64,000 nucleotides of DNA from an uncultured Gemmatimonadota bacterium. Lineage in GTDB: Bacteria; JAAXHH01. Each line of letters begins with the position of its first letter. Within the stretch, counting starts at the first letter, position 1. Where the stretch lies: the NCBI GenBank assembly GCA_951812955.1, contig OX638340.1, forward strand, positions 1,632,001 to 1,696,000, given 5' to 3'. The position numbers were made by a program, and so were the translations under genes. A model generated the notes under the pieces. It was not told the origin of the DNA and did no database searches. It saw nothing but the letters and a program-made list of their open reading frames with translations. This document shows positions 3,615 to 54,831 of the stretch, in pieces.

Positions 3615-5597
<1,983 letters not shown>

Positions 5598-5609
5598 GGG
5601 GAGCAAAAG

Positions 5610-5647
5610 AAACGCGGGGCTCGATGTGAGTCCCGCGTTTTCTGTTT
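5610..5647. terminator. Rho-independent terminator hairpin (AAACGCGGG...CCCGCGTTT followed by TCTGTTT). It could serve convergent dnaK (plus) and the OMP gene (minus).
   Basis: A perfect 9-bp stem plus a T-run sits directly after the dnaK stop and after the convergent gene that ends at 5681. Confidence 0.6.
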
Positions 5648-5680
5648 GGTGGTCTATTTCTCAAGAATTCCAGCGGCCAA

Positions 5681-6229
5681 TCACCCTCCGAGACGAAACG
5701 AAACGCCCAGGTTCGCATACCTCCACAGATCGTTGCTCACGCCAAATGATGCGACAACGCCAAATCGATGCGTGACCCATATCCCACCCCCGATAGACCC
5801 AACAGGGTCAATAGCGGTTGTTTCGTCCTCTAAGTCGAAGACGTCGATATCTCCCCGCTTGATTTCCACACCGAGCAGCCCCTCGACATAGTACTTCCTG
5901 GACTCGCCATAATAAAAACGGACGCCTCCGGATATCGGGATGCCCTGATACGCCGAGTCAATAGGGATCAAATTACCGTCCACATCGAAGACATCTTCCA
6001 CTTTGGAGCCATAGTGATTGAATCCGGCTCTTGCAACCAGATCGAGAGATTCCAAGTTTTCGAGCGAATAGGTAACGGCCACGGAACCACCAAATCCCGT
6101 CCCGTCAGCTAAAATGTCCAATTCTTCCAGGGCGACTGATCTATGTCCTTCAATTTCCAGTGAAACCTGGGCGTGTGTCTTCCCGGCCATAATACAGGGA
6201 ATAAGTAGCAGGAAGAGTAATCGTCGCAT
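5681..6229 (-). CDS. Outer-membrane beta-barrel protein (OmpA-like/porin family), with signal peptide
   Basis: N-terminal signal MRRLLFLLLIPCIMAGKTHA. The body has an alternating hydrophobic beta-strand pattern rich in G/Y/F/N, and the protein ends FRLGG. Confidence 0.5.
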   Translation of the reverse strand: MRRLLFLLLIPCIMAGKTHAQVSLEIEGHRSVALEELDILADGTGFGGSVAVTYSLENLESLDLVARAGFNHYGSKVEDVFDVDGNLIPIDSAYQGIPISGGVRFYYGESRKYYVEGLLGVEIKRGDIDVFDLEDETTAIDPVGSIGGGIWVTHRFGVVASFGVSNDLWRYANLGVSFRLGG

Positions 6230-6872: not shown

Positions 6873-7039
6873 TACCGGTGGGTTTACTCAAATTAGCTCA
6901 TGAATCATGAAGTGTCAACCTGATAGAGCGTACGACCAGTGTAGGAGACTTTCGTTGACATGCTCAAGAATCCGATGTATTTTGATACCTATGCAATCAA
7001 TTGACATTAAACTACTTCTCTTGTAATCAAGGTGCTGCC

Positions 7040-7261
7040 ATGAGTCAAATCACAGCAAGGGTTCCGGACAGCCTCGTCGAAGCACTTGATGCGGCGGCGG
7101 CAGAACTGAAAAGAAGTCGTGCCGCGCTTGTACGTCAAGCGCTTGAGCGATATCTTGAGGACTACGACGACCTCAGCGTAGCAATCGAACGTCTACGCGA
7201 TCCTTCTGATCCCGTGCTCGACTGGGACAAGGTCAGGAATGAGTTACTCGATTCACATTAA
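7040..7261 (+). CDS. Type II antitoxin, RelB/DinJ/ParD-like ribbon-helix-helix
   Basis: MSQITARVPDSLVEALDAAAAELKRSRAALVRQALERYLED, plus the C-terminal DPSDPVLDWDKVRNEL tail typical of RelB-type antitoxins. I chose the start at the Met of MSQITARV; the ORF track begins at 7001. Confidence 0.7.
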   Translation: MSQITARVPDSLVEALDAAAAELKRSRAALVRQALERYLEDYDDLSVAIERLRDPSDPVLDWDKVRNELLDSH

Positions 7262-7499
7262 GAAAAGTGCGGCCAAAGAACTGGCGCGTATTGCTTCGAA
7301 CGACCGTGGCCGCGTCATTCGTGCGATCGATCAACTAAAAGACCACCCTTACTCAGGCAGTCCTTTGAAAGGTGAGTTACGCGGCATCCGGCGAATTCGA
7401 GTGGGCGATTACCGTGTGTTGTACGAAGTCGGTGTAGAAGAACTCACCATACTCATAGTACGGGTAGCCACTCGAGAGGAAGTACACCGTCGTGGATGA
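7239..7499 (+). CDS. Type II toxin, RelE/ParE family
   Basis: 86 aa, with a RelE-like core (RIRVGDYRVLYEV...LTILIVRVATREEV). It overlaps the antitoxin by 23 nt, which is typical of coupled toxin-antitoxin operons. Confidence 0.8.
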   Translation: MSYSIHIKKSAAKELARIASNDRGRVIRAIDQLKDHPYSGSPLKGELRGIRRIRVGDYRVLYEVGVEELTILIVRVATREEVHRRG

Positions 7500-7592
7500 T
7501 CTAACCAGTATCGGTTTAAGAGCCAAAAGATACGCGTTGATTCTGCCGTGGTGGCCATGTAAAATCTTCCTGAATCCAACCCGGGAGGCACC

Positions 7593-8762
7593 ATGGCAAT
7601 AGACAGCACCGCAGACCCTCTCGCAATTACCCTCGGCGTCGAGGAAGAATTCTTCCTCATCGATCCGGAAACGCGCGATCTGCTGCCGGATCCGGACCCG
7701 CATATATTCCAGGAATGTGAGAAGAACCGCGGGGACCACAAGGTCGTGGCCGAGTTCCTCCGCTCCCAGATCGAGACTACAACTCGGGTCTGCTCCTCCG
7801 TGACGGAAATCCATACTTCCCTGCTAGAGACCCGCCGCCTTGTCATCGCCGCGGCGGCAAAACATGGCGCCGCGGTACTGGCCGCTTCCACCCACCCCTT
7901 CGCGGCCTGGCACCAGCAGGTTCCAACGGCCGATCAGCGCTACGAACAGTTTGCCATGACTTACCAGCAGGCCGTAAGGGAACTGCTCGTGGGCGGCATG
8001 CACATCCACGCGGGTTTCGGCGACCCCGACAGCCGCGTGCGGGTCATGACGGCGATGCGTCGTTATATGCCGCTGCTCCACGCGTTATCCGCTTCCTCTC
8101 CCTTCAACAGCGGACGGGAGACCGGCTTCAAGTCGTATCGGCTGACCCTCTTCGGCAGCTTGCCGCGCACGGGTCTGCCGGGGCCGCTTCACTCCTGGGC
8201 GGAATTCGAGAAACTGGTCGAAGAATACCAAAGGTTGGAGTTCATCCAGGACAGCAGCGAGCTGTGGTGGGATATCCGTCCTTCCCGGGCCTTCCCTACC
8301 CTGGAACTGCGCATCTGCGACATCTGCCAGACCGTGGACGACGCCATGTGCGTCGTGGCGCTCTATGCGTGTCTCGTGCGATACCTGCTTCGGCTGGACA
8401 TGGAAGGGCGGCTTCCGACGGAACCGCCGACGGAACTGATCAAGGAAAACTGCTGGCTCGCCCAGCGTTACGGCGTGGTTGCTTTCCTGGGCGACACAGA
8501 GGGATCGGGCCGTCAGGATATCGATGAGTACGCCGAAGCCCTGGTCGAGAATCTGTCCGAAGACGCCAAGGCCCTCGGATGCGAAAACGAACTGCGCCAC
8601 ATTCTGGACCTCATCCGGTACGGCACTGGATCGGACCGGCAGATCGACCACTACAGACTTCGACGACTGGAAGGGGATTCGGAGGAGGAGGCCCTGCGGG
8701 CGGTCGTGGATCTCGTGGTCGCAGAGACCGGAAACGGCCTGGATGCGCCGGACGGGGCGTGA
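7593..8762 (+). CDS. Carboxylate-amine ligase, YbdK/GCS2 family (putative glutamate--cysteine ligase 2)
   Basis: LGVEEEFFLID N-terminal motif, the HIHxG segment, and 389 aa length match YbdK-type ligases. Confidence 0.85.
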   Translation: MAIDSTADPLAITLGVEEEFFLIDPETRDLLPDPDPHIFQECEKNRGDHKVVAEFLRSQIETTTRVCSSVTEIHTSLLETRRLVIAAAAKHGAAVLAASTHPFAAWHQQVPTADQRYEQFAMTYQQAVRELLVGGMHIHAGFGDPDSRVRVMTAMRRYMPLLHALSASSPFNSGRETGFKSYRLTLFGSLPRTGLPGPLHSWAEFEKLVEEYQRLEFIQDSSELWWDIRPSRAFPTLELRICDICQTVDDAMCVVALYACLVRYLLRLDMEGRLPTEPPTELIKENCWLAQRYGVVAFLGDTEGSGRQDIDEYAEALVENLSEDAKALGCENELRHILDLIRYGTGSDRQIDHYRLRRLEGDSEEEALRAVVDLVVAETGNGLDAPDGA

Positions 8763-45878: not shown

Positions 45879-46871
45879 TTATCCCCTGTCGTCACCTTCC
45901 CTGGCTGATACAATATACCTGTCCACCGTATCGGCGAAGATCAGGAACTGCGGGTTGTTTCGGTGGGTTGCCCTCAGGGCCAGTACCGTAACGCCTTCCG
46001 ATCCCTCTGTATGTACGCCCCGGCAGTACGCCTCCATTAACGCGGGTTCAAGTGGTTCTCTCGAGTCGTGGAAGCTATCCGCGAAAAAGCCGAAAATCAT
46101 GCCCACGATACCGATGCCCACCATCATCATCAACACGCTGGCCCCCTGTCCCAGGGGGGTGACCGGGTACTTGTCGCCGTATCCCACGGTCGTGGAGGTC
46201 ACCACGGCCCACCAGATGCTGTCGCCGTATACACTGAAGACCTCAGGCTGGGCGCGGCGTTCCACCTCGTAGATCACGGTCGAGCTGATCATCAGGTACA
46301 TGATGGTGATAAGGAAAATCGGTATGATCCGTATCCGACTGTGGTACATGGACCGGGCGAACTCCGCCAGTTTTGGGCTGTATCGGAACATCTTGAGCAG
46401 CCGTAGTGTCCGGGCGCCCCGGACCAGTCCAAGCTGCTCCTGGGTCAGACCGGGGTAGAATCCGATCCAGAAGGGCAGGATGCTGATCAGGTCGATCACC
46501 CCCAGAGAACTGACCAGGTACCTGCCCTTGCGCGGCGACAGCCTGATGCGCAGCAGATATTCCAGGGTGAAGAACCCCGCGATGACCCGCTCGATCCAGA
46601 TAAACCCCGCCCAGGCGCCGGCGTCCAGACTGCTGCGCGTCTGGGTGTACTGGAGCTCGATGAAGTAGAGTATCATGTTGACGGCCAGTACGTAGGGTCC
46701 GAAACGGTGTACGGCCGCAAGCACGGAGGACAGGAATCCCGGCATGGCGTGCCTCCTTGGCGAATGTGATGGGCTTATTCCAATAGGTTTGTTTTTGATG
46801 CTACAAATACTGAGATGGTTTGGCCAATTTAGCGTAAGTGTCTCAAATAACAAAGGCCCACCGTCCGCCAA
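45879..46871 (-). CDS. Voltage-gated-type potassium channel (ion-transport family)
   Basis: K+ selectivity filter TTVGYGD, an S4-like segment with spaced Arg residues (LVRGARTLRLLKMFR), and 6 TM segments. Confidence 0.75.
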   Translation of the reverse strand: MADGGPLLFETLTLNWPNHLSICSIKNKPIGISPSHSPRRHAMPGFLSSVLAAVHRFGPYVLAVNMILYFIELQYTQTRSSLDAGAWAGFIWIERVIAGFFTLEYLLRIRLSPRKGRYLVSSLGVIDLISILPFWIGFYPGLTQEQLGLVRGARTLRLLKMFRYSPKLAEFARSMYHSRIRIIPIFLITIMYLMISSTVIYEVERRAQPEVFSVYGDSIWWAVVTSTTVGYGDKYPVTPLGQGASVLMMMVGIGIVGMIFGFFADSFHDSREPLEPALMEAYCRGVHTEGSEGVTVLALRATHRNNPQFLIFADTVDRYIVSAREGDDRG

Positions 46872-46912
46872 CGCTTCGGGTGAGCCTTATAGGTGTGGGA
46901 CCGTCGAGTGAT

Positions 46913-47683
46913 TCAGGACTTTTTCGATCGAAGGGCCGCCAGCCGGTCCCGCGTCGAGGAATCGGCCAGCGCGGGTTTCTCGGCCGCTTCTAGGGCCGCG
47001 GCAATGTTGGGATCGTCGGAGATCTCGGTCTTGCCGAAAGCGCCGATTTTGAGTTCCGCCGCACGGGACGTCGTTTCAGCCTTCTCCGTCTCCTTGTCCA
47101 TGGCGTTCAGGGCCGTGTCCAGTCCGCCCAGGGAGCTGCTCAGCCCCGCGGCCTGCCGCACGCCTTCGGCGCGTTCGACGGCCCGCTCCTTCTTCATCCT
47201 TGCCTGCTCCATGCGCCGCTGGGCCTGCTTGAGTTGGGTCTGCGCCTGCTTCAGTTTTTCCGCGGCCACGTCGTAAGCCTGGCGAAGCTCCGTCGCGAAA
47301 GCCTCCGCTTCCTGGTCCTCCTGGCGCTCCCGTTCGATCTCCGGGTTCAGACGCTCCAGTTCAGAGACCAGCTTGTCCAGGCTCTCCTCCAGCTTGGCGC
47401 GCTGCCCCTCTTCCGCCCCTTCGAGCTGGCCTTCGAGCCGTTCGGCAGCGGCCAGGTACCTGTCGTACTGCGTCAACAGCGCCTGCGTCTCTTCGTGGTC
47501 CTTCTTCACGTCCATCTCGGCCTTGCCGACCCGTTTCCCGAGCTTGTCGAGTTCCTCTTCCATGAGAGAAATCTGTGCCTCGGACGCGGTTTCCGGATCG
47601 AAGGCCACCACTGCCTGGGTAAAAGACTCCAGGGCGTTGCCGGCCTGTTTCTTGCCGACGCGGGAAAGAAATTTCCAGATCAT
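46913..47683 (-). CDS. PspA/IM30-family protein (phage-shock protein A-like coiled coil)
   Basis: 256 aa, entirely coiled-coil with heptad character, and N-terminal MIWKFLSRVGKKQAGNALE. Assigned by overall resemblance only. Confidence 0.55.
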   Translation of the reverse strand: MIWKFLSRVGKKQAGNALESFTQAVVAFDPETASEAQISLMEEELDKLGKRVGKAEMDVKKDHEETQALLTQYDRYLAAAERLEGQLEGAEEGQRAKLEESLDKLVSELERLNPEIERERQEDQEAEAFATELRQAYDVAAEKLKQAQTQLKQAQRRMEQARMKKERAVERAEGVRQAAGLSSSLGGLDTALNAMDKETEKAETTSRAAELKIGAFGKTEISDDPNIAAALEAAEKPALADSSTRDRLAALRSKKS

Positions 47684-47699
47684 GTCCTATCCTTTCTCT

Positions 47700-48401
47700 T
47701 TAAATAACCTTTACTTCCTCAAGCATCAGTTCCACGCCCAGGTACAGTTCTATAACTCCGTCGCCCGCGCTGATCAACAGGAATTCGTCCACGCGCTCGG
47801 GATCCTCCGGGTTGTAGGGGTCCCCACTCGCCACGCGGAAATAGGACATGGCCTGCTGGGTTTCCTCGTAGACCTGCTCTCCGTACGAATCCCGGATGAT
47901 CCGCTCGCTGACCTGCACCGGCACGGTCTGCCCGTCGCCATCCATCCATTCGCGGAGGTAGGACTGCTCCTCGCCGTCGCCATGGAGTACTTCCGGAGAT
48001 CCAATGATACCATCCTCATCGTTCAACCAGGTTGCCCAGATCTCCTCCGAATGGGGATACAGGTCCCGATCGAGCACGTACAGGCGGCATTCCACGGGTT
48101 CCCCGTGCTCCGCGACCACCTGGAGGAAGGCCGAGGTGCCCTGAAGGTAGCAGCGATAGGCCATGGCGCCTTCGCCCAGGTCGATCTTGCCGATGGCTTC
48201 GACGGCCAGGGGGAAGGATGGGAAGTTGAACTGGACGAGGCCGATGAAGGTGGACAGTCCGGCGCCGTCGATGTCGACCAACCGGTCGATGGCGACACCG
48301 AGGGGAAGATCCTGGTCAACCCGTGTGGGTTTCTTCCGAAAAAAACCAGCCGCCTCTTTCGCCTGTTTCTTCGCTACGGAACGAATAATGTGGAAGCTCA
48401 T
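47700..48401 (-). CDS. Hypothetical protein, second gene of the PspA-like operon (possibly DUF2491/YjfK-like)
   Basis: I chose the start at ATG 48401 (MSFHIIRSVAKK), which avoids overlap with the upstream gene ending at 48413. The family guess rests only on E. coli yjfJ-yjfK synteny recalled from memory. Confidence 0.35.
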   Translation of the reverse strand: MSFHIIRSVAKKQAKEAAGFFRKKPTRVDQDLPLGVAIDRLVDIDGAGLSTFIGLVQFNFPSFPLAVEAIGKIDLGEGAMAYRCYLQGTSAFLQVVAEHGEPVECRLYVLDRDLYPHSEEIWATWLNDEDGIIGSPEVLHGDGEEQSYLREWMDGDGQTVPVQVSERIIRDSYGEQVYEETQQAMSYFRVASGDPYNPEDPERVDEFLLISAGDGVIELYLGVELMLEEVKVI

Positions 48402-48412
48402 CGGGTCCTGCG

Positions 48413-50233
48413 CTACTCCTCGCCCACGATGGGCTTGATGTCGTCGATGGACCGCCAGAGGGCGTCTTCGAAGAGCGTCATGGGCTTGCTGCCATAGGTA
48501 TCCACCCATTGCTTCGACAGGATCAGGATGGCGTCCACCGTCAACGTCTCCACGCTGCTGTCGAGATAGCCGAAGAGCCAGCCCTCCTGAAGTTCCGGGT
48601 AGGTCTCGTGGGGGATCGACGCCACCTCGTAGATCGTGTTGCCGAACTGATCCACGGCCGTGCTGAAATAGTGCTCGTCCACGGCGACCATGCTCAGCTG
48701 TCCACCGTATTGCCGGTCCGCATCCTTCAGCAGTTCGGAGTTTAACCCGGCGACGAACAACATGACCGAGTTGGGATCCCCGGCCACCTGGCTCAGGGCC
48801 TCATCGTAGCTGGCGAACCGCGTGTTGAACTCCCCGTACCTGGGATCCTGGAGGACGAATCCTTCCCAGGCCCTGTGGGTACCAGAACCGCGGGGACCGA
48901 CGTACACGATATGGGTGTTCGGCTGGAGGTCCGAGACGCTTGCGATGCCCCCGCCCTCATTGACGATCAACTGCACGTACTCGGTGTACAGGGTGGACTG
49001 CAGCCCGACCAGTTGTTCCGCCGAAGCCGGGTTCTTCCTCAGGTAGGAGTTCAGAATGTCGCTTTGCACGAGCACCGCGTCGGCCTGGTTCTGGACCAGG
49101 TTGTTCAGGTTTTCTTCCGAACCGGCCGTCGTCTGGAGCATCACGTCGAAATCAGGCAGGTGAGACTGCAGGATCTGGCCGAATCGATGGTAGTTGCCGT
49201 TCTCCACCCCGGTGTTCACCGTGATGCGCGGCTGGTTCGGATCGGCGGTGGCCACGACTTCGGCGGCCAGGGCGATCGCCGGGGTCACCCCTGGCGGCAG
49301 GTATTCGGGATCTCTGGGCGTGCCTTCCAGCGTGGCGACCTGCTTGTCCAGTTCATCCAGCTTCGCGCGCAGTTCCGCGTTGTCCTCGGCCAGGCGTTCG
49401 GCCTCGCCGCGCCACTCCTTGTAACCCGGATCATTGGCGTGATGGTGGGCCATGGCGTAGTGACGGCGGCTGCTCATCATGTCCAGCATAGACCACATGA
49501 ACAGGGCGTCCCACATCCCAAAGCTGGGATAGGACATGAAGGCGTATCCCGGCGTGCGCCAGCCCATGCCCCCGTAGTAGCTGTCCCGGCCGGCATAGTA
49601 ATTGTCGTAGGAGGTGCGGTTCTGCGAGCCCCGTTGGTATATCCCGTTGTCCCGGTACGTGCTCGTGTTTGCGGCCGAGTTGGACGACCGGGCGAATCCG
49701 GACTGTCGCGACTGGTGGGTGTTCAGCGACCTGCGGGCCGTCTCGCTCTGTACCCGCCTGCCCATGACCGATGACCGGGCCGTGGCCCGTCCGGTCGAAG
49801 CGCCCGAGACCGCACCGCCGGCCCGGGTGGACCTGGCCGCGGTGGCCGTGGACCGCTGGGCGGACGTGCTTCGTGCCGGCGTGGCGGACTGGCCCGTTGT
49901 GCGGGCGGGTGTCTGCCGCGTGGCGGTGGTTGTACTTTTCCGTGAGAAAATGCTGCGGCGGCCGAATGAACTGCGGCGGTTCCAAAGCGACCGCGAACTG
50001 CGGAATCCACCGAAACCGCGGCGTGCGTAGGCTTCTTCAGGGCTGAACAGTCCGGTGATCTGCCGTATCGTTCGGTCCGCGTTATCCGCGCTTTCCACGG
50101 GTGGCACGGCATCGTCGATCGACCGCACACGGTCCGTCAATCCGGGACTGTTGCCACCCGGACTGATCTGCAGAAACCCGCCTGTCAGCACGAGCAAGCC
50201 GGCAATCATAAGCAGTTTTAATTTTCGAGACAT
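48413..50233 (-). CDS. Secreted/membrane-anchored protein: signal, ~150-aa Ser/Thr/Arg-rich low-complexity region, coiled coil, and a C-terminal TAXI-like (TRAP-associated) periplasmic-binding-fold domain
   Basis: N-terminal LKLLMIAGLLVLTGG. The low-complexity region reads RQTPARTTGQSATPARSTSAQRST... The C-terminal ~300 aa resemble TAXI-family solute receptors (GVENGNYHRFGQIL...). That assignment is from memory and weak. Confidence 0.4.
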   Translation of the reverse strand: MSRKLKLLMIAGLLVLTGGFLQISPGGNSPGLTDRVRSIDDAVPPVESADNADRTIRQITGLFSPEEAYARRGFGGFRSSRSLWNRRSSFGRRSIFSRKSTTTATRQTPARTTGQSATPARSTSAQRSTATAARSTRAGGAVSGASTGRATARSSVMGRRVQSETARRSLNTHQSRQSGFARSSNSAANTSTYRDNGIYQRGSQNRTSYDNYYAGRDSYYGGMGWRTPGYAFMSYPSFGMWDALFMWSMLDMMSSRRHYAMAHHHANDPGYKEWRGEAERLAEDNAELRAKLDELDKQVATLEGTPRDPEYLPPGVTPAIALAAEVVATADPNQPRITVNTGVENGNYHRFGQILQSHLPDFDVMLQTTAGSEENLNNLVQNQADAVLVQSDILNSYLRKNPASAEQLVGLQSTLYTEYVQLIVNEGGGIASVSDLQPNTHIVYVGPRGSGTHRAWEGFVLQDPRYGEFNTRFASYDEALSQVAGDPNSVMLFVAGLNSELLKDADRQYGGQLSMVAVDEHYFSTAVDQFGNTIYEVASIPHETYPELQEGWLFGYLDSSVETLTVDAILILSKQWVDTYGSKPMTLFEDALWRSIDDIKPIVGEE

Positions 50234-50544
50234 GAGGTACTTCCCCTTTGTAGTCGATAGGATGGTTCGGATTCTGGCTTCCTAAAGATAAGGACTTCGC
50301 ATCCTGCAGGCAAGTTGCAAACCTTTATGGAACCGGTGATCCGGTCGAATGTGTAGCCGTTTTGCCAGTCTGCGGTCCGCCGCGTACGATTTTCGGCGTG
50401 GCTCGGGCATGAAGATACCGAAGATACCATTGACCGGGTAGTCCGCCGGCCATACCATATCGGATCGCGTTTCAGACCAAGGCTAAATACCAAAGACGCC
50501 ACATAGCAGACCGGTTCACCGATCCTGTAAAGGAAAGAACACGC

Positions 50545-51747
50545 ATGCCCATCACGGAGGTCCGCGTTCGGCAGGTTGCCGTCCCGAGGATCTATGACAC
50601 TTATTGCGCGGACCCCAAGCACTTGAAGGCTACCATCGACCACGGCCGGTCTACCTACCAGATCATCGAACTGAAGACCCATGATGGCCTGACCGGAATC
50701 GGCGAGGTCTCCGATATCGCGCCGCGGATGGACGCGCCTTCACCCGGATCATTGCAGGACATAGTGTCCAGCGTGCTGGAAGGCGGTGACCCTGCCGCGT
50801 GGCGCAACCTGCATGACCGGGCCGGGGAAGCGCTTCCCGGAGACCTGTACCCGGAACTCAGGCAGTTGATTCTCTTCGGTTTGGAAAGTTCATTGCTCGA
50901 CCTGGTCGGCAAGGCGTACGGCATTCCTCTTTACGAGCTCCTGGGCGGACGATGCCGGCACGCCGCCGCTGTCTCGTGGGTAGCCTACCTGCGCGGCGAC
51001 GCCGCCCTCGAAGATGAGCTGCAGGCGCTCGAGCTGGAGATGGCAGACCAGGTGGGATCGGGCATGAAGGCCTTCAAGCTCAAGGTGGGCGAGGACCACG
51101 AACGCGACCTGGAGAGGGTCCGGCTGGCACGGAGGATCGCGGGAGCCGGAGCGTACATCAAGGTGGATGCCAGCGGTTTCTGGGAAGAAGACGAGGCCCT
51201 GTCCAGGCTGCACGACATGGCGGAGGCCGGCGCCGACGCGTGCGAGACGCCGATTCGCGCGCTCTCGAGACCCATGTCGCGGGAGGATCCCGCCCGAATC
51301 GAATCAGAAGCGGACGGGATTGCCGAAGCGCTGGCAGGTGTCCGCGGCAGTTCCCCCATACCGATCATCGAGCATGTCGCCGATCTCGGAGATGTATTCC
51401 TGACGGCCCTGATCCGGCGTCGCGCCGTGGACATCGTCAACGTCGTTCCCTGCCAGGCCGGCGGGCTGCGCCGCGCCAAGCGACTGCTCCACGCCGCAGA
51501 GACCGCGGGCATGCCCGCATTGCTGGGCAGCACGATCGAATTGGGACCCGGAACGGCGGCGGCGGTACATCTCGCCGTTTCGTCGGCAAGCGTCAACGTG
51601 CCCTCGGACCTGGTGGGTCCCGGACTGCTCCAGGACGACGTGTGCACCACCCCATTCACCCTCGAAGGAGGTGAGCTTTCGCCTTTCAAGGGGCCGGGAC
51701 TCGGCATCGAGCTGGATGAAGAGAAACTGGCGCGGTGGACGGGTTAA
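50545..51747 (+). CDS. Enolase-superfamily protein (mandelate racemase/muconate-lactonizing enzyme family)
   Basis: Capping domain plus a TIM barrel with KxK (FKLKVG) and metal-binding Asp/Glu at the expected spacing. 400 aa. Confidence 0.75.
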   Translation: MPITEVRVRQVAVPRIYDTYCADPKHLKATIDHGRSTYQIIELKTHDGLTGIGEVSDIAPRMDAPSPGSLQDIVSSVLEGGDPAAWRNLHDRAGEALPGDLYPELRQLILFGLESSLLDLVGKAYGIPLYELLGGRCRHAAAVSWVAYLRGDAALEDELQALELEMADQVGSGMKAFKLKVGEDHERDLERVRLARRIAGAGAYIKVDASGFWEEDEALSRLHDMAEAGADACETPIRALSRPMSREDPARIESEADGIAEALAGVRGSSPIPIIEHVADLGDVFLTALIRRRAVDIVNVVPCQAGGLRRAKRLLHAAETAGMPALLGSTIELGPGTAAAVHLAVSSASVNVPSDLVGPGLLQDDVCTTPFTLEGGELSPFKGPGLGIELDEEKLARWTG

Positions 51748-51829: not shown

Positions 51830-52276
51830 TCACCGCCTGAATCTGCCAGAACCGCCTCGCCCCATTTGCGATGCTTCCTCCACCAGTTTATCGAACGTCT
51901 TCATCGCGTCCGGCGAAAGCACACCCTTCAGGTTCGTCTTGAACTGCTTTTCGTTTTCCTCCAGTTGTTCACGCAGCCATTTCCAGTCTTCGGTCTTCCT
52001 GGCCTGTTCCAGCAGCGCGTCCTTCTGCGTTGATGCTTCCTTGACCATGGCGCGCAGTTGCAGCACCTGATCGTCGGTCGTATCCATGCGTATACTAAGC
52101 ACGTGCCAGATCTGATCGACACGGAAGGTGTTCATCGCTTGCATTTGTTCCAACATGGCACTGTTCTGTCCCCGGCCGCCCATTCGGCCGAATCCGCCTC
52201 GCTGCGCGGCCGCGTCGTTGGCGATATAGGCAATCATCATCAGGCCGATTACGGCAAGGTGAAGACGGTATTTCAT
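51830..52276 (-). CDS. Periplasmic LTXXQ-motif protein (Spy/CpxP-family-like), copy 3
   Basis: Signal peptide from MKYRLHLAVIGLMMIAYIANDAAAQ. Helical, with a TTDDQVLQL motif. The listed ORF begins at 52366. Confidence 0.5.
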   Translation of the reverse strand: MKYRLHLAVIGLMMIAYIANDAAAQRGGFGRMGGRGQNSAMLEQMQAMNTFRVDQIWHVLSIRMDTTDDQVLQLRAMVKEASTQKDALLEQARKTEDWKWLREQLEENEKQFKTNLKGVLSPDAMKTFDKLVEEASQMGRGGSGRFRR

Positions 52277-52369
52277 GCTATGACTCCCTTCAATTAGATG
52301 CCGCGGTCGGACTGGGGATCCTTCCGCGGCGGGTTCTCGCTCCAATAACCAGCGGTCAGCTAACAATTG

Positions 52370-52424
52370 AACGGTGAACTTTCATTCTAACGGTGGACTT
52401 TCATTCTAACGGTGGACTTCACTT
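52370..52424. repeat. 19-bp tandem direct repeat (AACGGTG[AG]ACTTTCATTCT) x2.8 between LTXXQ genes 2 and 3
   Basis: Seen directly at 52370-52388, 52389-52407 and 52408-52424 (degenerate). Confidence 0.55.
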
Positions 52425-53088
52425 AACGCCGGTCGCGGAATGATTCACGGCCTCCCCGGCGTCCGCGCATCCCGGAATCCCGGCGTCCGTCGCGCCGGTC
52501 GCGGAATGATTCGCGCAGCTCTTCCTGCTGTTCCGGTGTCAGCACGTTCTTGACCTCGGCGCGGAAGACGGCGCCTCGCTCGAACACGCTGCCCTGCGCC
52601 CTGGACACGGCCGCGGCCAGCTCTTTCACTTTTTCCAGGTCCGGGCTGGTCTCGCCCATCAACTCGTTCAGATCAATCCGTGCGAGCCTCGAATCGGCGC
52701 GAAGCTGGACCATGTCCCGTGCATACGCTGAACGCAGCGTGCTGATCTGTTCCTGTTGCTCGTCTGTGAGTTCGATATTGTTCAATGCCCTGCGGGACAG
52801 GTCGTTCCCGCGCGACCGGTCGTTCCCGCGGGACCTGCCGGTACGTGCTGCGTCGTTATCGGCAAGATTGTGGTCCAGGGCGTCGGCGAACTCTCCCGCT
52901 GATCCTGATTCCGCGAACTCGGCAATTAGCTCGAATTCGGATTCTGCCTCGTGCTCCGCGCCCGCCGTGGCGGCTTCGTGATGGCCGCCGCCCTCATTAT
53001 GACTGATCTTTCCCGCAGCATCGAAAGCCCAGGCCAGAACGGCCACGGACAGCGTGCCTGCGAAGATTCCTGTAATCATCTTTTTCAT
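52423..53088 (-). CDS. Periplasmic LTXXQ-motif protein (Spy/CpxP-family-like), copy 2
   Basis: Signal MKKMITGIFAGTLSVAVLAWA. Two LTxEQ motifs (LTDEQQEQI, LTPEQQEEL). His/Glu-rich N-terminal region. Confidence 0.55.
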   Translation of the reverse strand: MKKMITGIFAGTLSVAVLAWAFDAAGKISHNEGGGHHEAATAGAEHEAESEFELIAEFAESGSAGEFADALDHNLADNDAARTGRSRGNDRSRGNDLSRRALNNIELTDEQQEQISTLRSAYARDMVQLRADSRLARIDLNELMGETSPDLEKVKELAAAVSRAQGSVFERGAVFRAEVKNVLTPEQQEELRESFRDRRDGRRDSGMRGRRGGRESFRDRR

Positions 53089-53166
53089 GCTGTAGCTCCT
53101 TTCGAAATACACCCTGACTGAAATGGTCGCGATCTCCGGAGACCGTTTTCGTGCTTCTCTACATGA

Positions 53167-53196
53167 TTAGACTGGAATCGACGGAGTTTTATTCCC
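53167..53196 (-). promoter_or_regulatory. ECF-type promoter candidate upstream of LTXXQ gene 2: GGGAATAAAA-N14-GTCTAATC on the minus strand
   Basis: It resembles the RpoE-type -35 GGAAC / -10 GTCTAA consensus. The same motif with identical spacing recurs upstream of the ECF sigma gene. Confidence 0.45.
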
Positions 53197-53286
53197 TTTT
53201 TCTTTCGATTGCCTTTTCTTCTCATCTCCTATACCGGGCCCGGCATCCACAGCCGATCCCCAAGCCCGTTCCGGCGGCTCGAAGTT

Positions 53287-53766
53287 TTAATCGCCGTTGT
53301 TTCTCCGGTGCTCATCCGTCCGATCGTTCTCGTGGCTGCCGGATCCGTTACGTCCACCCGGCCTGTTGCGCTCCCGGCGCAAGTCGGGACCACCTTCCCG
53401 GCGGAACTCACGGGCGCGTTCGCGGCGCTGGCGGATACTCTTTATCCGCTCCAGCTGCCTTTCGGTGAGGATGGGTTCCAGGTCCCGATGCAACGAATCG
53501 ACCAGGGTCTGCATCTCGCGCCGGTGACGCATGTAATTCTCCCGGAATCCCGGTTCGTGTTCACCCACCACTTCCCTGATCCTTCGTATCTGCTCCTGGT
53601 CCGGACGCACCATTCTGACCCAGCGATCCACGAAGCGTTCCCGGGTCATCTGGGGCGGCGGCTGCAGGCGGTCCCGGGCGAAGGCGCCCAGGATCAACGC
53701 ACCGCATACCATGCCGATGATCAGCGTGGCCAGCAGAATGGCCGCGGTCTTCAAGTGGATGTTCAT
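53287..53766 (-). CDS. Membrane-anchored LTXXQ-motif protein, copy 1, translationally coupled to the anti-sigma gene
   Basis: N-terminal TM helix (AAILLATLIIGMVCGALILGAFA), an LTERQLERI motif, and an Arg/Glu-rich helical tail. Its start ATGA overlaps the upstream stop. Confidence 0.5.
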   Translation of the reverse strand: MNIHLKTAAILLATLIIGMVCGALILGAFARDRLQPPPQMTRERFVDRWVRMVRPDQEQIRRIREVVGEHEPGFRENYMRHRREMQTLVDSLHRDLEPILTERQLERIKSIRQRRERAREFRREGGPDLRRERNRPGGRNGSGSHENDRTDEHRRNNGD

Positions 53767-54227
53767 AATGCGCCCTCCGTTTCCAGTGCGATCCGCGCGT
53801 CATAGAGGTCTTCAGGGTACAGTTCCTCGGTCAGGCCGAAGGAAGCCGTGAAGGAGACGTTTCCGGTCGTGGCCAGGTTGTAGGTCAACAGCAGCATAGC
53901 GGCGATGGACGCGGCCACCGCCATTCTACGGAACATGAGGGACAACGCAGTCTGGAAATCATGCGTTGCTTCGGCGGTGGAATTCGACACCGGACCGGCC
54001 GCGGACTCCGTCGCCAGACGCTCCATGACCCGGTCGGTGAAGCCCGCCTGGAACGCCGGCGACTCCTGGCCTTCGACGAGACCGCGCAGGTGCATCAATC
54101 GTTCGTATTCTTCCCGAAGGCCCTGGTCGCGCAGGAGCGCCGCGTCCAGGCGGCTTCGTTCACCGGGCGTCAGGGACGTATCGAGCGACCGGTACAGCAG
54201 GTCCAGCTCAGACCGTTTCATGGACAA
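53763..54227 (-). CDS. Putative anti-sigma factor (single TM)
   Basis: 154 aa. It overlaps the 3' end of the ECF sigma gene. It has an N-terminal cytoplasmic helical region and a TM segment (MAVAASIAAMLLLTYNLATTG). Assigned by position and architecture. Confidence 0.5.
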   Translation of the reverse strand: MSMKRSELDLLYRSLDTSLTPGERSRLDAALLRDQGLREEYERLMHLRGLVEGQESPAFQAGFTDRVMERLATESAAGPVSNSTAEATHDFQTALSLMFRRMAVAASIAAMLLLTYNLATTGNVSFTASFGLTEELYPEDLYDARIALETEGAL

Positions 54228-54831
54228 GCTCCCTGTTGGAGTACAGAAGTAATCGTTTCAGCTTCTCCTGGGACCGCCTCAGACGGGAAAGGACCGTCCC
54301 GACGGGAATCCCCAGGATCTCGGCGGTTTCTTTCGTGGAATAGCCTTCCATCAGCCGGAGTACGATAACGGAACGGAATTCCGGTTTCAGTTCCTGCAGC
54401 GCCTGTTGAATCCGGTCGGCCGTGTCGTCGTATTCGGCGCTGGCCCGGGGGTCCGCATAATCCGCCTCCGGTTCGTTGCGGTCCCTGCCTGGCACGGCGA
54501 GGGGTACAATGATCGATCGGCGGCGACGTTTTCTGAGTTCGGAAATCGCCAGGTTGACGGCGATGCGAGTCAGGTAGGTGCCGACCGACGCCTGACCGCG
54601 GAACCCCCGGAGGCCGCGGTAAAAACGGATGAAGGTCTCCTGCCCCACGTCCTCCGCATCGGCGGTGTTCCCGAGCATGCGGATGACGACGGACGCCACG
54701 CGGTCCTTGTGACGTTCCACCAGTTCCCGGAAGGCATCTTCGCTTCCGTCGCGGGCGGCGTCGACCAATGCGGCGTCTTTCAAGGCGTCTTCCCTCATCC
54801 CGTCTCCCTCGAATAACCGTTTTCCGGTCAA
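54208..54831 (-). CDS. ECF-subfamily RNA polymerase sigma-70 factor (RpoE-like)
   Basis: Region 2 (FRELVERHKDRVASVVIRMLGNTADAEDVGQETFIRFYRGL) and region 4 (LKPEFRSVIVLRLMEGYSTKETAEILGIPVGTVLSRLRRS). Start may be the internal Met at 54798. Confidence 0.85.
   Translation of the reverse strand: MTGKRLFEGDGMREDALKDAALVDAARDGSEDAFRELVERHKDRVASVVIRMLGNTADAEDVGQETFIRFYRGLRGFRGQASVGTYLTRIAVNLAISELRKRRRRSIIVPLAVPGRDRNEPEADYADPRASAEYDDTADRIQQALQELKPEFRSVIVLRLMEGYSTKETAEILGIPVGTVLSRLRRSQEKLKRLLLYSNRELVHETV

Follow-up and report, generated by a model that had tools for sequence, protein, structure and literature searches.

A conserved operon that joins an exported TAXI-domain protein to DUF2491 and PspA-like partners, and its possible relation to YjfJ-YjfK systems

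The operon and its conservation

The 64,000-nucleotide stretch analysed here (the window), from contig OX638340.1 of an uncultured Gemmatimonadota bacterium, carries three tightly packed open reading frames (ORFs), g1, g2 and g3, on the minus strand between positions 46913 and 50233. The first encodes a protein with a predicted export signal and a C-terminal TAXI-type solute-binding domain, the second a DUF2491 (YjfK-like) protein and the third a helical protein that resembles PspA in several respects. The first-pass annotation had described a tight three-gene operon on the minus strand with gaps of 12-16 nt. Both the ORF list and the sequence bear the layout out; the larger gap, between g2 and g3, is indeed 16 nt, whereas the smaller one, between g1 and g2, measures 11 nt. 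The mechanical ORF of g2 starts farther upstream and overlaps the end of g1, and the length of 233 aa is counted from the ATG chosen in the first-pass annotation. Purine-rich ribosome-binding sites precede g1 and g3. The coordinates of these genes, of their domains and of the neighbouring features are collected in Table 1.

The conservation of the arrangement was assessed in a scan of a genome collection anchored on g3 (80 loci), in which the parts were mapped on all ORFs with local profiles. About 45 loci have the order found in the window, with signal, linker, module and TAXI domain in one protein, followed by the DUF2491 protein and then by g3 (type A). The carriers are the window's own clade, which consists of metagenome-assembled genomes (MAGs) labelled Latescibacterota, Gemmatimonadota or "bacterium" and gave a best match of 99% identity; Desulfomonilaceae and related Desulfobacterota; and Verrucomicrobiota/Akkermansiaceae. 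The gene order is kept with gaps of ~10-20 nt across three or more phylum-level groups. So many independent occurrences (about 45 loci, in at least three phylum-level groups) put the type A arrangement far beyond chance, and the conservation on which the first-pass annotation had made the operon depend was found across phyla. In the window's clade the operon is followed by a gene for a potassium channel of the voltage-gated type with six transmembrane (TM) helices (Pfam Ion_trans, 101 bits; Ion_trans_2, 55 bits). This gene lies 3' of g3 in 27 of 27 related loci of the Latescibacterota/Gemmatimonadota type and is absent from the other lineages.

A second arrangement (type B) is alphaproteobacterial, with about 25 loci that include Acetobacteraceae and Rhodospirillales; among its cultivable carriers are Craurococcus roseus, Paeniroseomonas aquatica, Lacibacterium aquatile and Pararoseomonas sp. 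Here signal, linker, module, a TM helix and DUF2491 form one protein, which is followed by a YjfL-like DUF350 protein and by g3. The DUF2491 domain of the fusion matches g2 at E 4e-13 and PF10679 at E 1e-14 to 1e-19. Since the module is fused to DUF2491 in type B, the non-TAXI part of g1 is functionally tied to DUF2491. Altogether, g3 homologues adjoin DUF2491 (type A) or DUF2491 and DUF350 (type B) in about 70 of 87 loci, and no canonical PspA was found near the g3 homologues in those loci. Gene order, domain identities, conservation and the module-TM-DUF2491 fusion were all computed directly, as was the conservation of the pocket residues described below. Twelve loci carry g3 with neither a DUF2491 nor a module partner nearby (type C). 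In three of them (L006, L033 and L036) the g3 homologue lies directly upstream of an Mrp-type Na+/H+ antiporter operon, with a DUF465 gene between the two in L006. The Desulfomonilales locus L053 has tandem g3 homologues, at 5382-6173 and 6995-7786, after its TAXI and DUF2491 genes.

Table 1. Features of the operon and its surroundings, in positions of the window
Feature	Position	Strand	Extent	Remarks
g1	50233->48413	minus	606 aa	ATG start; AAAGGGGAAG ahead of start
g1, N-terminal segment	50165..50233	minus	residues 1-23	MSRKLK and hydrophobic stretch 5-23
g1, low-complexity linker	49622..50152	minus	residues 28-204	S 17%, R 16%, A 12%, T 12%
g1, conserved module	49289..49621	minus	residues 205-315 (~110 aa)	motifs and alignment; no Pfam family
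g1, TAXI-type solute-binding domain	48416..49246	minus	residues 330-606	profile against PDB; Pfam
g2	48401->47700	minus	233 aa	from the ATG past the g1 stop
g3	47683->46913	minus	256 aa	AGAGAAAGGATAGGAC ahead of start
Conserved upstream element (candidate promoter)	50281..50323	minus		blocks GGTTTGCAACTTGCC (50323->50309) and GTCCTTATCTTTAGG (50295->50281)
Terminator-like hairpin (weak candidate)	46844..46888	minus	10-bp GC-rich stem (46888->46853)	followed by U-rich UUUGUUAUUUG
6TM Ion_trans gene, potassium-channel type	45879..46745	minus	~288 aa	from ATG at 46745; downstream of g3
ECF sigma factor	54208-54831	minus		in upstream cluster
Two small Pfam-less ORFs	53763-54227, 53287-53766	minus		first may be an anti-sigma factor
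LTXXQ/Metal_resist (CpxP/Spy-like) periplasmic protein	52423-53112	minus		in upstream cluster
Small exported-looking protein	51830-52366	minus		in upstream cluster

The exported protein g1 and its DUF2491 partner

The first-pass annotation had given g1 an export segment, a low-complexity region, a coiled coil and a TAXI-like C-terminus, and the protein has this architecture. Its first 23 residues are predicted to be a Sec signal peptide or a signal anchor. A Kyte-Doolittle peak of 1.7-2.0 lies at residues 5-23 across all close g1 orthologues, and the equivalent segment in other lineages resembles a classical signal peptide (e.g. ...AATPVWQAA and ...FVSVANVAA), in many of them apparently a cleavable one. 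The linker behind it (~180 residues) has a net charge of about +20; a linker rich in S/G/R(K)/P, with a net charge of +4 to +25, stands ahead of the module in every lineage. The Desulfomonilaceae orthologue is 39% identical to g1 over 440 aa. A homology of g1 to YjfM/DUF1190 was also considered and rejected, as the likeness to E. coli YjfM is a low-complexity resemblance only and there is no Pfam match.

The conserved module of g1 has no Pfam match beyond coiled-coil noise. Its motifs are G-W..PG, a hydrophobic helix of the form FGxWDaxFxW (residues 238-253; FGMWDALFMWSMLDMM in g1), nHxxDPGYxxWR (261-275; HHxNDPGYxEWR in g1) and PRDPxYLPP (306-314; PRDPEYLPP in g1), and a coiled coil covers about residues 275-303. 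The module is 44% identical over 117 aa to a 552-aa protein of Pararoseomonas and is present in 70 proteins of the related loci, its distribution being taken from the g3-anchored loci instead of a module-only search. A database search with residues 205-330 of g1 alone gave a single protein, P0121. This metagenomic protein of 211 aa is a stand-alone module that ends in a TM helix and RRR and has neither a TAXI nor a DUF2491 domain, and the module therefore exists as an independent unit.

The TAXI identity of the C-terminal domain is borne out by Pfam and by full-length matches in the PDB. g1 scored 41.5 bits against Pfam NMT1_3 (PF16868; cut-off 27) and 64.6 bits against TIGR02122, the latter being under the NCBI subfamily cut-off of 84.35. 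A profile of the domain, built from 21 homologues and searched against the PDB, matched 1US4/1US5 at E 7e-18 (positions 7-282 against 6-283). It also matched 8U79, 4DDD, 8S4J (E 7e-11) and 9IBO, so that the matches range from E 7e-18 to 7e-11, mostly at full length. Then, is the ligand pocket retained? In VcGluP, L-glutamate is contacted by Y45, S75, Q93, E125 and G156 (PMC11574862), and in the alignment these contacts correspond to Y348, S372, Q390, E418 and G451 of g1. Y348, Q390, E418 and the G449-S450-G451 loop are invariant in the 21 homologues, and the position of S372 is occupied by Ser in 17 of the 21 and by Ala in the rest. With its ligand contacts so well conserved, the pocket of g1 appears intact and of the amino-acid/carboxylate type; by the alignment it retains the residues with which glutamate-binding TAXI proteins grip the alpha-amino-acid moiety. 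No DctQ/DctM-type membrane gene of a tripartite ATP-independent periplasmic (TRAP) transporter was called within +/-8 kb in the close relatives L002-L004 or within +/-7 kb in L007, and none was seen adjoining g1 in the window. A separate TAXI (NMT1_3) gene of 334 aa, preceded by a 540-aa Pfam-less protein, is found in the Pararoseomonas locus L005 (10835-13476, minus strand), 3 kb from the type B operon and on the other strand; its product is 25% identical to the TAXI domain of g1.

The product of g2 scored 60.3 bits against DUF2491 (PF10679; cut-off 25) over residues 24-191, and BLASTP aligned it end to end with E. coli YjfK (residues 18-233 with 2-218, E 6e-7). A YjfK/DUF2491-like protein, which the first-pass annotation had thought conceivable at this position, is thus confirmed. 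A DUF2491 profile had no match among PDB sequences. g2 has no signal peptide and is predicted to be cytoplasmic. Its N-terminal peptide is amphipathic and similar to that of g3 (MSFHIIRSVAKKQA and MIWKFLSRVGKKQA, for example), and the YjfK/YjfJ pair of E. coli likewise begins with similar N-terminal amphipathic peptides. It may be that in type A loci the amphipathic peptide takes the place of the TM helix by which DUF2491 is tethered in type B.

The type B proteins also bear on topology. Behind their module come a strongly hydrophobic helix, an Arg cluster (e.g. ...WRRR or ...YKRIGRR) and then DUF2491, a domain that carries no export signal where it is encoded on its own. The TM helix with its Arg cluster, the positive-inside rule and the lack of an export signal on DUF2491 together place the module outside and DUF2491 inside. 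Verrucomicrobial g1 has an extra C-terminal TM helix past the TAXI domain. From this helix, from the TM helix and RR(R) of the type B proteins and of P0121, and from the signal-peptide-like N-termini, we infer that everything in g1 from the linker to the TAXI domain is periplasmic and close to the membrane.

g3, PspA and the YjfJ-YjfK operons

g3 matches no Pfam or NCBIfam family, and the matches that it gives are coiled-coil noise (SMC, Rad50). Its AlphaFold2 model is all-helical, with a pLDDT of 73 overall and of about 90 over the long hairpin formed by residues 35-87 and 92-179; the remaining helices span residues 3-27, 187-215, 225-233 and 244-253. The N-terminal helix is amphipathic and is followed by a break at a nearly invariant Asp-Pro, by the hairpin and by three shorter C-terminal helices. 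In the predicted model this helix layout and the approximate length match those of PspA/Vipp1. When the model was compared with the PDB by Foldseek, ranks 1-11 were all Vipp1, with full-length alignments and E values of 4e-3 to 0.1. The hydrophobic moment of residues 2-19 is 0.47, as compared with 0.42 for E. coli PspA. Many members of the g3 family start with MGGIFGFL... or MGLLSFF..., which may be set beside MGIFSRF of PspA and MGLFDRL of Vipp1, and the N-terminal peptide of the MGxF..FL..G.K type, together with the DP motif, resembles those of PspA, Vipp1 and YjfJ. At the C-terminus, DRLAALK of the g3 family parallels ...LAALK in Vipp1 and in an actinobacterial PspA, and ...LAQLK in E. coli PspA. 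The position of g3 relative to DUF2491 and DUF350 is that of yjfJ.

The family is a compact one. An exhaustive hidden Markov model (HMM) search of 1.84 billion representatives returned 677 clusters at E<=1e-3. Relatives of g3 (P0009, P0021, P0038 and others) are publicly labelled "chromosome segregation ATPase" or "SbcCD ATPase subunit". For the g3 family these labels are almost certainly wrong; their source is the resemblance of the coiled coils to SMC/Rad50 arms, with NCBIfam matches at E 1e-5 to 1e-7 that fall far short of the cut-offs.

The annotated yjfIJKLMC operon of E. coli encodes YjfI (DUF2170), YjfJ (PspA family), YjfK (DUF2491), YjfL (DUF350), YjfM (DUF1190) and YjfC. In a survey of phage-shock-protein (PSP) systems, the YjfJ group comprises a CesT/Tir-PspA dyad, an ATP-grasp ligase, a K+ channel, DUF350, a DUF1190 lipoprotein and DUF2491 (PMC11237479). 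DUF2491, DUF350 and a K+ channel are thus all on record as companions of YjfJ-type PspA, and their occurrence in the loci studied here supports a relation to YjfJ-YjfK operons. As in operons of the yjfIJKLMC type, a DUF2491 protein adjoins a helical PspA-type protein of ~230-260 aa, both cytoplasmic proteins begin with a similar amphipathic peptide, an exported low-complexity partner stands beside the cytoplasmic pair, and DUF350 (type B only) and a K+ channel (window's clade only) are found. Unlike those operons, the PspA slot is filled by a family with no PF04012 match, the exported partner has an undescribed module and a TAXI domain, and the exported protein comes first and the PspA-like protein last. 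The canonical Psp, Lia and Vipp1 systems (PspA-PspBC, LiaH-LiaI, Vipp1/IM30) differ further: no homologues of PspB, PspC, PspF, LiaI or LiaF were seen, profile similarity to PF04012 is not detectable, and the sensor candidate is a periplasmic solute-binding domain.

With the TAXI proteins of TRAP transporters (TtGluBP, 1US4/1US5; VcGluP, PMC11574862) g1 shares full-length homology of the domain and the Y, S, Q, E and GSG-loop residues. In contrast to TtGluBP and VcGluP, the domain of g1 sits behind a signal or anchor, a basic disordered linker of ~180 aa and a coiled-coil module, has no TRAP membrane subunit nearby, and has DUF2491 and a PspA-like protein, not a permease, as its genetic partners. 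TAXI proteins are not among the PspA partners of the PSP survey (PMC11237479), and none of the papers open to a full-text search links PspA to TAXI proteins, in agreement with the first-pass annotation, to which such a partner was unfamiliar. The operon is best filed as a variant of YjfJ/YjfK-type PspA systems with an undescribed TAXI/module partner. That it is an envelope module related to the YjfJ-YjfK (PspA-family) operons, in which g1 is an undescribed periplasmic sensing protein, we hold to be a little more probable than its negation.

A number of results weigh against this relation. g3 had no match to PspA_IM30 (PF04012) at E<=1 and scored 9.5 bits against TIGR02977, for which the cut-off is 243, so the profile check that the first-pass annotation had named for the third gene came out negative. 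PF04012 is also absent from the 25 Pfam families most matched by 129 members of the g3 family, none of the 25 being significant, and a small PspA HMM does not recover g3. Searched against the PDB, the 129-member profile found Vipp1 only at E 0.3-9, with the DP motif in register. An hhalign comparison of the g3 family with an 8-sequence PspA template gave a score of 33.3 (P 3e-4), as compared with 13.7 for the reversed control and <=18 for column shuffles. With a broader 28-sequence template, the matched orientation scored 24-27 and the reversed controls 31-33; since reversed controls were as high with the broader profile, we downgraded the significance obtained with the small template. The broader profile drew on a metagenome scan (80 PspA loci, 46-100% identity). 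Two other searches were poor sources of PspA diversity: the matches listed for E. coli YjfJ contained only near-identical enterobacterial sequences, and a plasmid tblastn of PspA gave almost only Klebsiella-type copies of 93% identity. Only ~35-55 N-terminal columns (alpha-0, DP and the start of alpha-1) align reproducibly between the g3 family and PspA. Beyond g3, YjfI (CesT/Tir), an ATP-grasp/polyamine gene and DUF1190 are absent, and the ORFs of L002-L087 gave no matches when searched locally with YjfI, YjfM and YjfC of E. coli. A segment exported to the periplasm would not usually carry as much positive charge as the linker does (+20). In type A, which includes the window, no covalent link joins periplasmic g1 to cytoplasmic g2 and g3, and the relay between them is unexplained.

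The PspA-like character that the first-pass annotation had given to g3 is thus plausible from predicted architecture, Foldseek ranking, N-terminal motif and gene context, but profile searches do not establish membership of the PspA/IM30 family. On the predicted architecture, the Foldseek result, the motif and the gene context, homology of g3 to PspA is plausible and seems to us somewhat the better supposition; that g3 is a functional analogue of PspA is more likely than homology.

How else could the operon be explained? If the uniformly negative HMM tests of g3 against PspA are taken at face value, g3 could be an unrelated coiled-coil scaffold or adaptor, docking DUF2491 or a channel, for instance, in an operon that serves ion or osmotic homeostasis together with the K+ channel or, in some Alphaproteobacteria, with an Mrp antiporter. 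The channel gene 3' of g3 in the window's clade and the Mrp operon 3' of g3 in 3 of the 12 partnerless loci fit such a role. Against an unrelated scaffold stand the 11 best PDB matches, all of them Vipp1 over the full length, a predicted helix pattern and length that match PspA, a PspA-type N-terminal peptide with the DP motif, and the place of YjfJ relative to DUF2491 and DUF350. We regard this explanation as rather unlikely. Less likely still is a role for g1 as the membrane-tethered TAXI binding protein of a transporter, TRAP-TAXI or different, whose genes lie elsewhere, with g2 and g3 as uncoupled neighbours. The TAXI fold is bona fide and of full length, its amino-acid-type pocket appears intact, and TAXI binding proteins with non-canonical membrane partners are reportedly being described (PMC12344293). 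Uncoupled neighbours, however, are hard to reconcile with a g1-g2-g3 order that about 45 loci, drawn from three or more phylum-level groups, keep with short gaps, or with the fusion of the g1 module to DUF2491 in Alphaproteobacteria, which ties g1 to g2; and the relatives inspected had no TRAP membrane component within the distances given above.

Could the cluster belong to a mobile or anti-phage defence system? Defence systems often contain coiled-coil proteins and membrane effectors, and g3 has weak PADLOC matches to DruC, JetC and LmuB (E 2e-4 to 1e-2). These matches are coiled-coil noise on SMC-like arms, and g1, g2 and the channel have none. The flanks hold housekeeping and envelope genes that are syntenic in relatives, no integrase/tRNA junction was noted, and the GC content is unremarkable. 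A defence function is accordingly very improbable.

Returning to an envelope module related to the YjfJ-YjfK operons, what could the three proteins do together? Exported and membrane-proximal, g1 would sense a periplasmic ligand through its TAXI domain, and its module, with a hydrophobic helix and a coiled coil, would perhaps sense the state of the membrane or a perturbation of its outer leaflet. g2 and g3 would be held at the inner face of the membrane by their N-terminal amphipathic peptides. The periplasmic state would be relayed to DUF2491 at this face, in type B directly through the TM helix, and DUF2491 would control the membrane recruitment or the polymerisation of the PspA-like g3, which in turn would stabilise or remodel the membrane. 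The topology, the interactions among g1, g2 and g3, the class of the ligand and the membrane-protective output are what we infer. In its strongest form, the operon would be a new trans-envelope Psp-like system, in which a periplasmic TAXI domain, together with the module, signals through DUF2491 to a highly divergent PspA/ESCRT-III-like polymer; this is a tentative idea, to which we give less than an even chance. If it holds, a specific extracytoplasmic ligand, probably an amino acid or a related carboxylate, and not generic membrane damage, would decide when membranes are remodelled or repaired, and DUF2491/YjfK would have its first defined role, as a coupler between sensor and polymer.

In every domain of life, PspA/Vipp1/ESCRT-III proteins guard membranes and reshape them. 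To our knowledge, how they are switched on is understood for a few model systems only, and we know of no signal or mechanism for the YjfJ-YjfK branch, which is kept even in E. coli. On computational evidence, the operon offers a testable handle on this uncharacterised and widespread branch of the phage-shock response. The solute-binding domain has a ligand that can be screened for, the natural module-TM-DUF2491 fusion shows which parts talk across the membrane, and the compact PspA-like family of g3 is missed by current HMM libraries and widely mislabelled. If the coupling is real, the operon would stand for a form of phage-shock response that a ligand gates, and DUF2491 would gain a role.

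Regulatory candidates and flanking genes

An alignment of the 330 nt 5' of g1 from 11 related MAG loci revealed a conserved element 48-90 nt before the g1 start. Its two blocks, GGTTTGCAACTTGCC and GTCCTTATCTTTAGG, are the sole well-conserved upstream stretches in these loci besides the ribosome-binding site, and the element is probably the promoter of the operon, as judged from this conservation. Conserved blocks at this place fit g1 as the first gene of the unit. A consensus scan found no sigma-70 site on the minus strand. GGTTTGCAACTTGCC has the GG-N10-GC spacing of sigma-54 promoters, but its -24 box is poor. On this spacing the conserved GGTTTGCAACTTGC motif could be a sigma-54 site, but no activator gene was seen; GGTTTGCAACTTGCC and the downstream GTCyTATCTTTA block could equally be a -35/-10 pair.

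Past the other end of the operon, a terminator-like hairpin begins 25 nt past the g3 stop, ahead of the channel gene. Shuffled sequences fold with energies that are just as favourable (z = -0.54), and a pattern scan did not list the hairpin; in view of the folding energy it is only a weak terminator candidate.

Just upstream of the operon, past a divergent gene of the MR_MLE enolase superfamily (50545-51747), lies a cluster of envelope-stress type on the minus strand (51830-54831), which comprises the ECF sigma factor, the two small ORFs, the CpxP/Spy-like protein and the small exported-looking protein of Table 1. The same ECF/CpxP-like cluster adjoins the operon in the close relatives L002-L004.

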